From Nanobdellota archaeon (GTDB lineage: Archaea > Nanobdellota > Nanobdellia > Woesearchaeales > GW2011-AR4): 55,875 nt of DNA. Location: assembly GCA_038046385.1 (NCBI GenBank), contig JBBSWH010000002.1:1-55875 (forward strand), in the 5' to 3' direction. Position numbers and translations under genes: made by a program. Shown here piece by piece: positions 3,997-52,068 of this stretch. Every line of letters begins with the position of its first letter. The stretch's first letter is position 1. The notes under the pieces are model-generated. The model ran no database searches and was not told the DNA's origin. It saw nothing but the letters and a program-made list of their open reading frames with translations.

Positions 3997-5535
3997 ATGA
4001 TACTAGTATTAAATTTCGGAGGCCAATATTGCCACCTTATCGCAAGAAGGGTAAGGGATTTAGGAGTTTATTCTGAGATAGTCCCTTGCGACATTCCTTT
4101 AAGAGAGATAGGGAGATTAAAGCCTGACGGAATAATACTTTCCGGTGGCCCATCGAGTGTTTACGAGCACAATGCTCCGATGATGGACAAAAAGATTCTT
4201 GAGTTAGGAATTCCAATATTAGGCATATGCTACGGCCAGCAGCTAATAGGCAAATATGTCAACGGAGAAGTTATCGGCAATAAATTAAAAGAATTTGGAA
4301 AAAAAGAGCTTCGTGTAAAAAAGAACGGAAAGCTGCTGAAAGGGCTGTCAAAAAAAGAAACTGTGTGGATGAGCCACGGCGATTTGGTTGCAAAGCTTCC
4401 AAAGGATTTTGAAGTGCTTGCATCAACAGATACATGCACAATAGCCTCATTTGAAAACAACCAAAGAAAACTTTATGGAATCCAGTTCCATGCAGAGGTT
4501 ATCCATACTCCGAAAGGAAATGAAATTTTCAAAAACTTTTTATTTGATATTTGCAAAGCAAAAAAAGACTGGCACATAAAGAGCCTTGCAAACAAGATTG
4601 TAAAGGAAATAAAAAAAGAAGTCGGAAGCAATTCTGTCATAATGGGTGTTTCGGGCGGAGTTGACAGTACTGTAGCCGCTACTTTGCTGCATAATGCAAT
4701 CGGCAATAAGCTTTACTGTGTTTTTGTTGATCATGGATTAATAAGAAAGAATGAAGCAGAGGAAGTAAAGGATTTCTTCGAGAAGCGCCATAAGTTCAAG
4801 CATTTCTATGCTATTGATGCTTCAAAAATATTCCTGGAAAGACTAAATGGGATTACGGACCCTGAAGAAAAAAGAAAAATCATAGGGCACACGTTCATAG
4901 AAGTGTTTGACAGCAAAGTGATTGAGCTCGAAAAAAAACATCCTGCAATAAAATTTCTTGGGCAGGGAACAATTTACCCTGACAGGATTGAGAGCGCGCA
5001 GCCTTCAAAGCACGCTTCCAAAATCAAAAGTCATCATAATGTAACGCTTCCAAAAAATATGAAGCTAAAAGTTATTGAGCCATTAAAGGAGTTTTACAAG
5101 GATGAAGTCAGAAAATTGGGAAGAGAGCTAAAAATACCAAATGACCTGTTAGACAGGCATCCGTTCCCTGGACCGGGCCTTGCAATAAGGATTCTTGGCG
5201 AGATAACAGAAGAAAGGCTCAAAATTTTAAGGGAAGCTGATTATATCTTCATCGAAGAGCTTAAGAAATCAAAATTGTATAATGAAACCTGGCAGGCGTT
5301 TGTCGCATTATTCCCGGTAAAATCTGTTGGCGTCAAAGGGGACGCAAGAACTTACGAGTATATTATCTCATTAAGAGCCGTAACAAGCCTTGATGCCATG
5401 ACAGCTGACTGGGCAAGGTTTCCCAATGATTTCCTTGAAAGCGTGTCAAACAGGATTCTTAATGAAGTTGCAGGGGTTAACAGGGTTGTCTATGATATCA
5501 CACAAAAACCACCAGGAACTATAGAATATGAATGA
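3997..5535 (+). CDS. guaA: GMP synthase (fused GATase + ATP-PPase)
   Basis: GICYGQQ, QFHAEV, SGGVDS, HPFPGPGLAIR and KPPGTIEYE motifs. Confidence 0.97.
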   Translation: MILVLNFGGQYCHLIARRVRDLGVYSEIVPCDIPLREIGRLKPDGIILSGGPSSVYEHNAPMMDKKILELGIPILGICYGQQLIGKYVNGEVIGNKLKEFGKKELRVKKNGKLLKGLSKKETVWMSHGDLVAKLPKDFEVLASTDTCTIASFENNQRKLYGIQFHAEVIHTPKGNEIFKNFLFDICKAKKDWHIKSLANKIVKEIKKEVGSNSVIMGVSGGVDSTVAATLLHNAIGNKLYCVFVDHGLIRKNEAEEVKDFFEKRHKFKHFYAIDASKIFLERLNGITDPEEKRKIIGHTFIEVFDSKVIELEKKHPAIKFLGQGTIYPDRIESAQPSKHASKIKSHHNVTLPKNMKLKVIEPLKEFYKDEVRKLGRELKIPNDLLDRHPFPGPGLAIRILGEITEERLKILREADYIFIEELKKSKLYNETWQAFVALFPVKSVGVKGDARTYEYIISLRAVTSLDAMTADWARFPNDFLESVSNRILNEVAGVNRVVYDITQKPPGTIEYE

Positions 5536-5544
5536 TTATAGTGT

Positions 5545-5598
5545 CGGTTTTTGTGGGACGCCAAAAATCTTTGATTTTTGAGCGTATCACAAAAACCG
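5545..5598. repeat. Nested hairpin CGGTTTTTGTG..CAAAAATC-TTT-GATTTTTG..CACAAAAACCG
   Basis: 11-bp outer and 8-bp inner perfect inverted repeats. Confidence 0.8.
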
Positions 5599-5622
5599 CC
5601 TGCAACGATAGAATACGAGTGA
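5584..5622 (+). pseudogene. Stranded duplicate of the guaA 3' end (VSQKPPATIEYE*)
   Basis: Translates to the GuaA C-terminus with mostly synonymous differences from 5497-5535. Confidence 0.8.
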
Positions 5623-5666
5623 TAAATACCAATGGTCTTTTAAACCCAGCCGCTATTCTTCATAAT

Positions 5667-5831
5667 ATGGAAAAAATCAAGCCTAATACTTCAGCAAGTA
5701 AGAGGCCCTATAAGATTGTAGGGTTTTGCAGGCGCTGCAAGGAAAGGTTTGCTGTAGATATGGAGCAAAAGTACGCTTCAAAAAATTATTGCAAAAGCTG
5801 CGTAACCAGCTTTAAGAAGGGAGGAAACTAG
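5667..5831 (+). CDS. Small CxxC-x17-CxxC zinc-ribbon protein
   Basis: CRRC-17 aa-CKSC; ATG at 5667; immediately upstream of the cold-shock gene. Confidence 0.7.
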   Translation: MEKIKPNTSASKRPYKIVGFCRRCKERFAVDMEQKYASKNYCKSCVTSFKKGGN

Positions 5832-5832
5832 A

Positions 5833-6027
5833 ATGGTAGAAGGAACAGTAAAATTTTATAACAGCGCAAAGCACTTTGGCTTTATTGCTGGAGAAGACGG
5901 AAAAGAATATTTCGTCCACGAGAGCGGCCTTAAGGCAGGTACGTCAATAACAGAGGGAGACAAAGTTTCTTTCAATGTTGTAGACGGTGACAAAGGCCCA
6001 AAGGCTGATGCAGTAGAAAAGTTGTAA
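5833..6027 (+). CDS. cspA: Cold-shock domain protein
   Basis: GTVKFYN..HFGFI..YFVHES..GDKGPKA; GGAGG RBS upstream. Confidence 0.95.
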   Translation: MVEGTVKFYNSAKHFGFIAGEDGKEYFVHESGLKAGTSITEGDKVSFNVVDGDKGPKADAVEKL

Positions 6028-49629: not shown

Positions 49630-49759
49630 TTATTAATTTTAATAATATTAATAGTTTTTGTTGATTTTGTATAATTATTAAAATTAATATTTATAAGCTT
49701 TGCGGTTTTGGCTGCTTTATTCAATAAAATATATAAATAAACGGCAAATAATCAGCCTT

Positions 49760-51712
49760 ATGCCAACAATAAAGGTAACTTTGCCGGACGGAAGCGTGCA
49801 CGAGCATCCAAGAGGGATTACTGCAGGGGAAATTGCGCTGAAAATAGGAAAAAGGCTTGCAGAAGATGCTGTCGCTGCAAAAGTAAACGGGGAATTAAAA
49901 GACCTTGACAGCCATATAAATGAAGACGCTGCATTGCAGATTATTACATTAAAGAACAGCGAAGGGCTTGATTGTCTGCGCCACAGCATAGCGCATCTTC
50001 TTGCAGCGGCAGTTATGGAAATGTGGCCCGACACCAAAAGAACAATCGGGCCGCCTATAGAGAACGGGTTCTATTATGATTTTGAGTTCACCCATAAGAT
50101 TTCAGAAGAAGACTTGCCAAAGATAGAGGCAAAGATGCGCGAGATTCTTCCGGCATGGGATAAATTTGAGAGATCAGAACATAGTTCAGCAGACGCAAAA
50201 AAAGAATTCCATGACAACAAATTCAAGCTTGAGCTTATTGATGAATTTTCCAGCGAGGGAAAAAAACTGACATTCTACAAGTCAGGAAATTATGTTGATT
50301 TATGCAAAGGCGGCCATTTGCCGAGCATGAAAAAAGTAAAGCCAGACGCATTCAAGCTGACAAATATTGCTGGAGCCTACTGGAGAGGAAGCGAAAAAAA
50401 CACAATGCTTACCAGAATTTATGCAGTTGCATTCCCGACAAAAAAAGAGCTTGATGATTACCTAAAACAGCAGGAAGAAGCTGAGAAAAGGGACCATAAA
50501 AAGATTGGAAGAGAATTGGGATTGTTCATGTCGCACGAGCTTGTAGGAAAAGGACTCCCAATCTGGCTTCCAAAAGGCGAGATAATAAAGAGAGAAATAG
50601 AAAATTTTGCAATCAACACAGAAAGAAAAGCCGGCTATCAGCGTGTTTCAACCCCGATGCTGGCAAAAAAAGAGCTGTTCATCAAATCCGGCCATCTGCC
50701 TTATTACAAGGAATCGATGTTTCCTGAAATGAAGCTTGACGACGGAGATTATGTGCTGAAGGCAATGAACTGCCCGCACCACCATTTAATTTACAGCCAC
50801 AAGTCAAGAAGCTACCGCGATTTGCCATTAAGAATTTCAGAGTACGGAATCTGCCACCGTTATGAATTATCAGGCACTTTGGCAGGATTGCTAAGAGTAA
50901 GAATGCTGACAATGAATGATGCGCACATTTACTGCAGGAAAGAGCAGATAGAAGAAGAGTTTGAAAGGGTAATAAAGCTGGTAGTGAATCATTACAAAGT
51001 TTTTGGATTGGAAGATTATTATTTTAGATTATCTCTTCACGACCCTGAAAACAAAGAAAAATACATTGACGAGCCTGAAAACTGGAAATTTTCAGAAAAT
51101 GCCTTAAGAGATGTTTTGAAAAAGATGAATGTGAAGTTTGTTGAGGCAAAAGATGAAGCTGCCTTCTACGGCCCAAAAGTAGATATACAATATAGGGCAG
51201 TTACCGGAAGAGAAGAGTCAATGTCCACCATTCAGCTTGATTTTGCGGCAAAAAAAAGATTTGGATTAAAATATGCTGACAAGGACAATACTGAAAACAA
51301 TGAAGTTTACGTAATACACCGGGCTCCATTGTCAACGCACGAAAGATTCATGGCATTCTTGATTGAGCATTATGCAGGAAAGTTCCCGTTGTGGCTTGCG
51401 CCGGTTCAGGTGCGGATATTGACAGTGGCTGACAGGTTTGAACCTTATGCAAATAAAATAAAAGATGCTCTTGATGAACATGATGTAAGGGTTGAAGTTG
51501 ATGCAAGAACTGAGAGCATCGGCTACAAAGTAAGGGAAGCGCAGGCTGAGAAGATTCCGTTAATTGTAACTGTTGGTGAAAAAGAAGAATATTCTGAAAC
51601 AGTTGCAATAAGAACAATGGATAATCTTGTTAAGTTTAATGTCAAGATAGAAGAGTTTGTACAGAAAGTTCTAAGCAACATTAAAGAAAAGAAAATTAAG
51701 GTTGAGTTGTGA
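49760..51712 (+). CDS. thrS: Threonine-tRNA ligase (bacterial-type, TGS + editing domain)
   Basis: RHSIAH, DLCKGGH, RDHKKIG, KAMNCP, HRYE, AFYGPK, TIQLDF, HRA, ERF motifs. Confidence 0.97.
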   Translation: MPTIKVTLPDGSVHEHPRGITAGEIALKIGKRLAEDAVAAKVNGELKDLDSHINEDAALQIITLKNSEGLDCLRHSIAHLLAAAVMEMWPDTKRTIGPPIENGFYYDFEFTHKISEEDLPKIEAKMREILPAWDKFERSEHSSADAKKEFHDNKFKLELIDEFSSEGKKLTFYKSGNYVDLCKGGHLPSMKKVKPDAFKLTNIAGAYWRGSEKNTMLTRIYAVAFPTKKELDDYLKQQEEAEKRDHKKIGRELGLFMSHELVGKGLPIWLPKGEIIKREIENFAINTERKAGYQRVSTPMLAKKELFIKSGHLPYYKESMFPEMKLDDGDYVLKAMNCPHHHLIYSHKSRSYRDLPLRISEYGICHRYELSGTLAGLLRVRMLTMNDAHIYCRKEQIEEEFERVIKLVVNHYKVFGLEDYYFRLSLHDPENKEKYIDEPENWKFSENALRDVLKKMNVKFVEAKDEAAFYGPKVDIQYRAVTGREESMSTIQLDFAAKKRFGLKYADKDNTENNEVYVIHRAPLSTHERFMAFLIEHYAGKFPLWLAPVQVRILTVADRFEPYANKIKDALDEHDVRVEVDARTESIGYKVREAQAEKIPLIVTVGEKEEYSETVAIRTMDNLVKFNVKIEEFVQKVLSNIKEKKIKVEL

Positions 51713-52001
51713 TTGGCTGAAGGGGCGGGCTGGTTTGCTCAAGAAGGTATTCAAACATCCTTGTTCTTAGTCCTAATTGTGGGTATGGTCTGGCGAGTTC
51801 ATCACGCAGGATTGTGGCAGTGCCCAAGAGAGACATCAATAAAGACGTTCCGGGAGTGAGCAACTCTTTTTCCATTCGTATAAGTTCCACTAGATTGCCC
51901 ATTTCTGCACAAGCTATGAAGTGGTTTCCCTGCTGAATCCAGGGTTTAACATCTGATTCATACTTTTGTTTCCATGCTTCAACTAGCTCTTGGATTTCCA
52001 T
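51696..52001 (-). CDS. Hypothetical cargo protein between thrS 3'-end copies 1 and 2
   Basis: 101-aa ORF, Lys-poor, TATA-like TTTATAA about 25 bp upstream. Confidence 0.65.
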   Translation of the reverse strand: MEIQELVEAWKQKYESDVKPWIQQGNHFIACAEMGNLVELIRMEKELLTPGTSLLMSLLGTATILRDELARPYPQLGLRTRMFEYLLEQTSPPLQPITTQP

Positions 52002-52035
52002 ACCTATCAGAAAGCCGCACCAAGTTATAAATATT

Positions 52036-52068
52036 ATTAAAGAAAAGAAGATTAAGGTTGAGTTGTAA
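52036..52068 (+). pseudogene. Stranded thrS 3' end, copy 2 (IKEKKIKVEL*)
   Basis: 31/33 nt identical to 51680-51712; both changes silent. Confidence 0.9.

Follow-up and report, generated by a model that had tools for sequence, protein, structure and literature searches.

This paper concerns a gene that ends twice. In a groundwater archaeon whose genome (G000) comprises 1.28 Mb in 19 contigs at 38% GC, we have studied one whole contig, C2, of 55.9 kb (55,875 nt; the window in what follows), and within it guaA, the gene for GMP synthase. The reading frame of guaA is closed by one copy of its last codons, and 48 nt farther on, behind a hairpin, stands a second copy that is not translated. The downstream copy is the native end of the gene, of the type found in its genus and still in the ancestral position; the upstream copy, the one that is translated, arrived together with the hairpin as an 87-nt unit, and GuaA was left intact by the insertion. 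The same order of parts recurs at guaA in other genomes of the order, with a hairpin whose pairing is conserved.

How can a gene acquire a new end from something that brings no gene of its own? We think the chances about even that the unit is a mini-insert with no gene, which recombines at its hairpin's foot and brings a replacement for the tail of the gene that it enters. It looks like an undescribed, gene-less relative of the prophages that replace a gene's end.

Two Ends and a Hairpin

The guaA frame runs over positions 3997..5535 of the plus strand (512 aa) and is terminated by end copy 1 (e1; 5497..5535, plus strand), which reads ITQKPPGTIEYE and a stop in the codons ATC ACA CAA AAA CCA CCA GGA ACT ATA GAA TAT GAA TGA and which, from the sequence itself, a repeat search, and the relatives described below, we read as borne by the insert. 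After a spacer of 48 nt (5536..5583, plus strand) comes end copy 2 (e2; 5584..5622, plus strand), reading VSQKPPATIEYE and a stop in the codons GTA TCA CAA AAA CCG CCT GCA ACG ATA GAA TAC GAG TGA. The two form a direct repeat (5501-5536 and 5588-5623) of 36 nt at 83% with a spacing of 87. A preliminary description of this locus had reported the second end with mostly silent changes, and the five silent codons that it listed are all there, in company with three replacements, I/V, T/S, and G/A. Because in-frame stops (5533, 5539, and 5572) intervene before e2, which is otherwise in guaA's frame, and because the spacings at comparable loci are often not multiples of 3, read-through, a frameshift, or a bypass to e2 is ruled out.

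Between the ends lies a two-tiered hairpin (5545-5598), which folds at −31.1 kcal/mol (z = −4.87), a value that none of 200 shuffles equaled. Its outer stem, found by folding and by inverted-repeat search (5545-5567 / 5576-5598), joins a left arm, CGGTTTTTGTG (5545..5555, plus strand), to a right arm, CACAAAAACCG (5588..5598, plus strand), which is the first 11 nt of the repeat's second copy and so lies inside e2, just where the preliminary description had placed it. The left arm, reverse-complemented, matches the first 11 nt of e2 (11/11) and of e1 (10/11), and it is also able to pair with the start of e1 over 13 nt at 92%. The inner stem is a palindrome of 26 nt (5559..5584), whose core, AAAAATCTTTGATTTTT (5563-5579), is shown by genome search to belong to a dispersed family. 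That inner core, 20 nt of it, is the only part of the spacer that a BLAST search finds again in G000; the outer arms and the remainder are unique. The folds also give a short stem (5518-5524 with 5536-5542) that encloses e1's last codons and stop. Within guaA, at the repeat's 5' edge, a repeat search finds an imperfect dyad, GGGTTGTCTATGATATC / GATATCACACAAAAACC (5483..5510; 17 nt, 76%), centered on GATATC, which, we infer, resembles the core site of a recombinase.

One might worry that a junction of this kind is a chimera of strains made during assembly, as the preliminary description itself had. That possibility is ruled out by a 442-nt contig from a different study (run X5), which covers 5381-5822 with 0 differences; because the junction is unchanged there, it is not an assembly artifact. 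Run X1, the possible source, has the junction as well, in a 7-kb contig. As for chance, a census of G000 took in 30184 stop-codon sites at most 400 nt from the end of a long open reading frame (ORF), and 5 of them repeat at least 6 of that ORF's last 10 residues; the guaA locus is one of the five, with 9 of 10 residues repeated. The best downstream match to the gene's own last 30 nt is 24/30 here, and the reversed-sequence control, over 121 distinct guaA loci, reaches 19/30 at most.

Two further candidates were dropped: a bulge-helix-bulge intron, the folds being without two 3-nt bulges 4 bp apart (no formal scan was made), and the template and variable repeats of a diversity-generating retroelement, since the differences are not limited to adenines.

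Which End Is Native

Among the 21 congeneric loci with a complete guaA end, 20 have a single end within the flank available, and 17 carry the genus-type end ISQKPPATIEYE (SQKPPATIEYE). Directly after e2 come an intergenic motif, a zinc-ribbon ORF, and a cold-shock domain gene (csp), and in six congeneric loci the same trio follows the single guaA end. A co-occurring relative, seen in a low-depth contig (X1 record 2), has a single guaA end identical to e2 at 30 of 33 positions, and in 12 loci extended up to 20 kb downstream no more distant second copy was found. The downstream copy is, in short, the native end in its ancestral position. The preliminary description had supposed an allele replacement that left the old end behind: the old end is indeed what was left behind, but an ordinary homologous replacement is not what the locus suggests, since no donor tract is seen upstream of e1.

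It is the upstream copy, then, that is the newcomer. Along the 1.4 kb compared, guaA of G000 is closest to its own genus (0.73-0.77), and GuaA has 77-84% identity to its relatives in that genus across the last 212 aa; its C-terminal 198 residues are 83% identical to a Candidatus Woesearchaeota archaeon record, the same level as congeners. Over the gene's last 39 nt the identity is 0.67-0.77 with most congeners; G331 stands at 0.95 there and G004 at 0.90, and ends of the TQKPPGTIEYE type occur within the genus (G004, G015). A comparison of the ends of relatives thus assigns e2 to the genus type and makes e1 the least genus-like, nearest to G331 and G004. Because only the last 39 nt differ, the replaced tract is the repeat itself, joined with the hairpin as one unit.

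Recurrence at guaA

We scanned 401 genomes of the order for the pattern GSNACNATHGARTAYGARTRR ([GA]TIEYE plus stop), for which the reversed-pattern control gave 1 hit in 401. Forty-eight genomes were positive, and 7 of the 48 hold two or three copies, 60-145 nt apart and on one strand. A DNA-level, coding-blind scan of the 121 guaA loci adds G224 and a Micrarchaeota record, and with G224 the succession of gene end, hairpin, and recoded end is found at guaA in 8 of the 48 genomes. The spacing is 87 nt in G000 (family f1), 72 and 73 nt in G033 (f10), 68 nt in G331 (f119), 78 nt in G186 (f50), 107 nt in G047 (f23), 60 nt in G232 and 122 nt in G156 (both f132, a family of 3 genomes, all already included), 65 nt in G224, and 143 nt in the Micrarchaeota record; only 4 of these 10 spacings are divisible by 3. 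Every small guaA case found has a hairpin at the junction. Units are stacked in tandem in G033 and G047, and G047 has a third, truncated guaA-end copy further downstream.

A larger insert occupies the same place in G020, of the same genus as G000 (locus L038, 100-870), where 700 bp lie between 46-nt guaA-end repeats that reach 13 nt past the stop. The insert holds a toxin-antitoxin pair, in which the toxin gene is of the TumE family (Pfam E 1.5e-18) and its partner has 96 aa, and the second end copy has a 1-nt deletion. Stranded copies do, then, decay with time, as is also seen in the third copy of G047 and in G224, whose second copy reads PPGTIG-stop-E-stop.

A wider draw of 401 genomes of the phylum gave no new tandem case, the guaA ending being absent from most of them. 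A pattern scan across GTDB gave, among the matches listed (80 loci), at least two loci with two copies, the Micrarchaeota record and a Geothrix rubra record (L101). The latter is not the same phenomenon: it is a plain tandem duplication of a bacterial guaA 3' end, repeated 232 nt downstream with 2 differences in the 85 nt compared, and the likeness starts well upstream of the last 12 codons.

Two other guaA observations may be recorded here for their own sake. Just after the guaA stop of G003 (L020) is an insert of ∼190 nt that folds as a long hairpin; it has GGCTTCATCCAAAAA as terminal inverted repeats and a duplication of 9 bp, AGTGAAAGG. This is an ordinary MITE (miniature inverted-repeat transposable element) in the same place, and no gene end is duplicated there. 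In G168, a free-standing guaA tail of 21 nt (NATIEYE and stop; L074, C36:19908-19928) lies on a contig other than guaA's, adjoining a nucleotidyltransferase/HEPN pair and an unknown protein, on a contig with no PF00589 match.

How the Two Copies Differ

If identical copies had been made at insertion and one of them had then decayed freely, the expected non-synonymous share of the differences would be 0.63. The nine copy pairs, which were found by DNA likeness alone, differ over their last nine codons by 42 synonymous and 3 non-synonymous bases (P = 4e-15), the pair in G000 contributing 5 and 1. The pairs of G047 and G331 are nearly identical (2 bases different in each), and in those of G033, G156, and G232 most synonymous sites have changed, although the reading is still perfect. 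A target-site duplication followed by decay is excluded by these counts. Because the differences are so strongly biased toward synonymous ones, both copies must have diverged as real gene ends, one of which came from elsewhere.

A Conserved Hairpin in Two Classes

All nine small units from Woesearchaeales have the same parts in the same order: a gene end with its stop, a back-pairing stretch, a composite hairpin, and the next end, the first 5-13 nt of which are in every case the hairpin's 3' arm. At its 5' edge the repeat begins at one of two distinct points, TCAC (G000, G186, G047) or CCNCC (the five others), which fits a defined crossover. In class I (G000, G186), a palindrome AAAAATC...GATTTTT lies within outer arms GGTTTTTGTG / CACAAAAACC, and TCAC is where the repeat starts; the hairpins of these two genomes, which belong to different families, are identical at 47 of 58 positions, whereas their guaA genes are only 0.67 identical. 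In class II (G033 twice, G331, G224, G232, G156), the form is GGNNC-AGAAATC...GATTTCT-GNNCC, with the Pro-Pro codons CCNCC as the start of the repeat. The repeat of G047 starts near TCAC, ∼36 nt before the stop, and its hairpins, which differ in sequence, were assigned to neither class.

An alignment of five class II hairpins (A1) has 98% of its cells paired, and 4 of 11 pairs are changed on both sides. Its covariation score was reached by 0 of 500 shuffles, and slid controls pair at 35-61%; the five sequences are few and related, and their outer stem is present in five different complementary versions. Rfam has no family at gathering score at the hairpins, the only match in the window being a tRNA.

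The hairpins are also a dispersed family in their own right. The inner 17-mer of the guaA hairpin has 24 sites in G000 within 2 substitutions, 5 of them exact, mostly intergenic and often clustered with several different A/T-rich hairpins. A covariance model of class II, with consensus GAGGTACC-AGAAATC-TTT-GATTTCT-CAG-GTACCTCC, finds matches in 29 of 151 order genomes, at most 7 copies per genome, and it is exactly at this family's terminal motif, CCTCC, which matches the Pro-Pro codons CCNCC, that the guaA repeat begins. In several class II copies a CCTCC stands ∼15 nt away, complementary to the ribosome-binding site of a gene on the opposite strand, and these copies have CCTCC on both flanks.

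A Unit That Would Bring Its Own Ending

What arrived at guaA, on the reading that we favor, was a mini-insert. In front of the native end stands an 87-nt unit (5501-5587 in one register) with four parts: the last 12 codons and a stop, synonymously recoded; 9 nt able to pair back onto them; an arm of 11 nt, the complement of the repeat's start; and the 26-nt palindrome of the dispersed family. It is the spare end that now completes GuaA, the native end being left, untranslated, on the far side of the hairpin. Entry would proceed by break-and-join at a short core, the repeat's 5' edge coinciding with the hairpin's foot, in a reaction that could be either conservative site-specific recombination or transposase-like. 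Variants that had captured a gene's tail could land on a conserved site without killing the gene; it is because the insert carries that tail that landing would be harmless. The catalyst would act in trans, because a 48-nt spacer has no room for a gene, and the hairpin would serve the element either as its site of recombination or as a structure by which it is held in place.

A more ambitious version, which we consider distinctly unlikely, sees in these units the smallest representatives of a class of mobile DNA that has not been described before, in DPANN archaea: hairpin cassettes of 60-120 nt, with a target-complementary arm as guide and an enzyme supplied by the host or a helper. On such an account the crossover site would be shown to the enzyme as folded single-stranded DNA, like attC or the attP of CTX phage, and the cassette would be excised between successive gene-end copies and reinserted at invariant codons with its spare tail. 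If true, it would also account for the tandem stacking, for the existence of empty and gene-bearing units, and for the constant recoding of the ends of housekeeping genes.

What weighs against a mini-insert of either description? To begin with the catalyst, no recombinase or transposase is linked to any unit, and there is no PF00589 match on the guaA contig in G000 or in five genomes with duplicated ends; G000 has three such matches, all on other contigs. A Y1 transposase is found in G000 and G029 and is not found in G033, G158 (95% complete), or G331, all of which hold the hairpin. The moving form itself, whether free, circular, or virus-borne, was not found among viral and metagenome contigs: the viral contigs have 0 matches to CCNCCNGSNACNATHGARTAYGARTRR, and the 8 matches to the class I arm pattern in metagenome contigs are all unrelated sequence with no guaA end. 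Nor did any contig show an empty site, a junction, or a skipping joint, although contigs cannot show rare forms.

The hairpin raises a difficulty of its own. Only 2 of 16 copies of the inner palindrome in G000 lie between duplicated gene ends (at guaA and at the 5' part of tRNA-Ser on C15), and 3 of 28 class II loci have any repeat of at least 19/22 within 350 nt, as against 1 of 49 control regions. Because most family copies are without a duplicated gene end, the hairpin may be a resident, or separately mobile, and merely sitting at the junction. The preliminary description had tied the whole hairpin family to the swapping of ends, a tie that holds at guaA and is not general. The likeness of e1 to distant genomes is, for its part, weak evidence of foreign origin: it covers 39 nt, and because e1 is built of A/T-ending codons, in a genome of 38% GC, it may be convergence. 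Last, the genomes compared are related, so that our tests overstate independence, and G232 and G156, which supply two of the cases, a row of A1, and two pairs out of the nine, are unpublished; without them the counts fall to 6 of 46 genomes and to 29 synonymous vs. 3 non-synonymous differences.

Other Ways to End a Gene Twice

The alternative that we take most seriously, while thinking it unlikely, is a deletion scar. An integrase-borne element of the e14 kind, a virus or plasmid with a replacement tail, would have lost its cargo and left attL and attR back to back. Direct repeats of a gene end, 27-46 nt long and with synonymous differences, are typical of such elements as the relevant portions of two papers describe them (PMC6379469, PMC4701971). 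The 700-bp insert in G020 and the 320-bp insert behind thrS in the window look like partly decayed cargo, and in G000 an integrase element at a tRNA-Leu gene has the same inverted arm at its far end. Random deletion does not, however, predict that nine independent units should all have come down to 39-101 nt with their parts in one order and their pairing conserved. No integrase element was seen at guaA in the 48 genomes positive for the pattern, or within up to 20 kb downstream in 12 loci, and viral contigs hold no copy.

An improbable alternative, in our view, is allele replacement from a relative, with the left side anchored by homology in guaA and the right side joined through microhomology to the hairpin arm, the tail being duplicated in the process. 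The repeat's 5' edge is the hairpin's 3' arm, and the class II arm ends in CCTCC, which matches the Pro-Pro codons of guaA; TQKPPGTIEYE-type ends are present in the genus, and the last 39 nt of G004 are 0.90 identical to e1; and no enzyme of its own would be required. Against this stand the missing donor-like tract upstream of e1, the relatives searched, none of which has the hairpin after a single guaA end, and the class I outer arm, which occurs nowhere else in G000. Since that arm is unique, its 11-nt match to the target would have to have pre-existed by chance. The same ordered anatomy in six families would also be hard to get from illegitimate joins.

Might the hairpin instead be a vertically inherited, cis-acting RNA structure—a terminator, a stabilizer, or a switch—with the second end kept as a pairing partner? 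The compensatory changes speak for one, as do the G-U pairs in the folds, the left arm's ability to pair with e1 or with e2, and the five T's in a row (T5) that the inner stem has on its 3' side. We nonetheless regard this as highly improbable. Pairing involves just the first 5-13 nt of e2, yet all of its coding sequence has been kept, with the stop; 20 of 21 congeners are without the unit; the spacing is seldom a multiple of 3 and in-frame stops intervene; and the copy in G224 has decayed.

To a MITE-like transposon with an unusually long target-site duplication, followed by drift, we give almost no credence: it would suit a gene-less hairpin with inverted arms and dispersed relatives, and the pairs of G047 and G331 with their 2 differences, but not repeats as long as 27-46 nt, not the 42 synonymous differences against 3, and not the pairs of G232, G156, and G033, which have changed at most synonymous sites and still read perfectly.

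Known Elements Compared

The gene-less mini-insert has its nearest parallel in e14, a prophage of many kilobases with its own integrase. In the passages of PMC6379469 that treat e14 (and phage 21) in the icd gene of Escherichia coli, the insert supplies a new 3' end and the native end is displaced and untranslated, and the two copies are homologous att sites that differ without harm to the protein. The features of that system that are found at guaA are the direct repeats of the gene end, the ORF completed by the upstream copy, the synonymous divergence, and the empty site in relatives; what is absent, between repeats with a 48-nt spacer, is the integrase gene and the cargo. The guaA unit differs from e14 in being gene-less and in having a conserved composite hairpin with one arm part of the displaced copy, and such units also stack (G033, G047).

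The choice of target has a bacterial precedent, as the preliminary description had rightly stated: streptococcal integrative and conjugative elements (ICEs) with tyrosine integrases, among them ICE_SmiB6_guaA, integrate into the guaA 3' end (PMC4701971, in the part that concerns these elements). The gene and the end are the same as for the archaeal unit, but the ICE is bacterial, measures tens of kilobases, and has an integrase and conjugation genes, of which the archaeal unit has none. The integrase-less, att-flanked remnants known as cis-mobilizable elements (CIMEs) of Streptococcus thermophilus, kilobases long, can be mobilized in trans by a related element, a known helper ICE. CIMEs and guaA units are alike in keeping both att sites, in having no recombinase, and in accreting in tandem at one gene end; CIMEs have a helper ICE at the same site, whereas none was found here at guaA.

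MITEs and palindrome-associated transposable elements (PATEs), protein-less derivatives of insertion sequences including IS200/IS605, share with our hairpins that they are small, gene-less, hairpin-forming, and dispersed. Their duplications are short and identical, or there are none, whereas here the repeat has 36 nt at 83% and its divergence is of the synonymous kind. The many copies with the same terminal inverted repeats that mark a MITE are seen in the class II hairpin elsewhere and not in the unit of G000.

Integron cassettes also invite comparison: like guaA units they stand in tandem, each has an imperfect hairpin whose 3' foot is the next junction, and they are empty or hold one or two genes, often toxin-antitoxin pairs (compare G020). 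In attC the R'' box (RYYYAAC) is at the 5' foot and the R' box (GTTRRRY) at the 3' foot; the arms of the guaA hairpin, GGTTTTTG (5') ... CAAAAACC (3'), are in the reverse of this order. The shared core of guaA units, unlike that of cassettes, is 27-46 nt of a housekeeping gene, and no integron integrase or attI was seen next to guaA, the PF00589 matches of G000 lying on other contigs and no search for an IntI-specific domain having been made. Finally, in the hybrid atp6 gene of Allomyces, elements that carry an endonuclease replace the 3' ends of mitochondrial genes, spreading by break repair and converting the flanks. There, as at guaA, the insert brings a foreign tail in frame and leaves the resident one behind it; the guaA unit, by contrast, has no ORF and a sharp left edge.

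In full-text listings of the published literature, we found no description of gene-less hairpin inserts with recoded gene ends. What we appear to have, then, is the known kind of end-replacing integrative element, reduced to a hairpin. If so, the replacement of gene ends, so far a property of prophages and conjugative elements that measure many kilobases, has a gene-less, hairpin-only form as well, and this stripped-down form recurs at conserved genes of the very small genomes of DPANN archaea. It would account for the stray gene-end and tRNA-end fragments and the local arrays of hairpins in these genomes, and it would be a steady source of synonymous recoding and of chimeric tails in essential genes. 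The conserved pairing and the arm that mirrors the target point to a structure-guided reaction, which could be tested in vitro. For annotators, the lesson is that second stop-proximal copies ought not to be called pseudogenes of duplicated genes or assembly errors.

Similar Layouts Elsewhere in the Genome

Had guaA been one instance of a genome-wide habit, as the preliminary description suggested looking for, other stranded C-termini would be found next to hairpins. A census of stranded C-termini in G000 gave no other protein gene linked to a hairpin; three tRNA genes do show the layout. At tRNA-Lys(CTT) (C1:86267-86451), the 3' end and ∼11 nt of its trailer occur again 85 nt downstream, on the other side of two hairpins, and a 25-nt block of the spacer recurs in an array of five hairpins (C4:71930-72087). 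Two tRNA 5' halves are repeated 79-90 nt upstream. At tRNA-Ser(CGA) (C15:15264-15470), 60 nt of the 5' part are repeated upstream at 100% identity, split by an 18-nt insertion, and a copy of the AAAAATC...GATTTTT palindrome lies between the copies. The scattering of tRNA fragments by an integrating element has been proposed before, in the portion of PMC3293823 that takes up the matter.

Behind tRNA-Leu(UAA) (C1:46560-56260) lies a 9.35-kb element with a 429-codon frame that matches PF00589 (tyrosine recombinase). Its far end is GGGGCGGAA-TGTGC-TTCCCCCGC, in which an inverted copy of the start of the target adjoins the displaced end; there are two successive relics of the tRNA end with a 105-nt hairpin insert between them, each preceded by a short inverted copy of its own start.

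In the window itself, the last 11 codons and stop of thrS (ORF 49700-51712) recur 356 nt downstream (51680-52068) with two differences, both silent (AAA/AAG, TGA/TAA). The repeats flank ∼320 bp with a 101-aa ORF on the minus strand (51696-52001) that has no Pfam match. The naming of ORF 49700-51712 as threonyl-tRNA synthetase comes from a reading of its translation.

Gene starts, too, can be doubled. At C1:79001-79192 of G000, a small gene has an exact second copy of its first 20 nt 92 nt upstream, and a hairpin lies between the two; from its residues (MKGTHS...), the gene is probably that of ribosomal protein L37e. Upstream of a class II hairpin in G128 (L219), the gene start ATGTCAGCCGATAGATTTGA occurs twice, 103 nt apart, and the upstream copy opens a short ORF that terminates at the second start. 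Class II hairpins also lie ∼15-40 nt upstream of the ribosome-binding sites of housekeeping genes (L204, L207, L208, L210, L213), among them, to judge by their first residues only, those for the P1 stalk protein and aEF-2. It is possible that the CCTCC of class II, by pairing with its own GGAGG or with the gene's ribosome-binding site, constitutes a translational switch.

The conserved neighbors of guaA complete the locus. The small zinc-ribbon ORF (5667..5831, plus strand) is known as such from synteny and from a weak Pfam match to zf-dskA_traR (E 0.0023, below the cut-off), and csp (5833..6027, plus strand) from synteny and a Pfam CSD match (E 5e-17). An ATG that overlaps the guaA stop (ATGA) opens a 99-codon frame (5532-5831), which passes out of frame through the stranded end and runs on into the zinc-ribbon ORF, an arrangement that is probably fortuitous.

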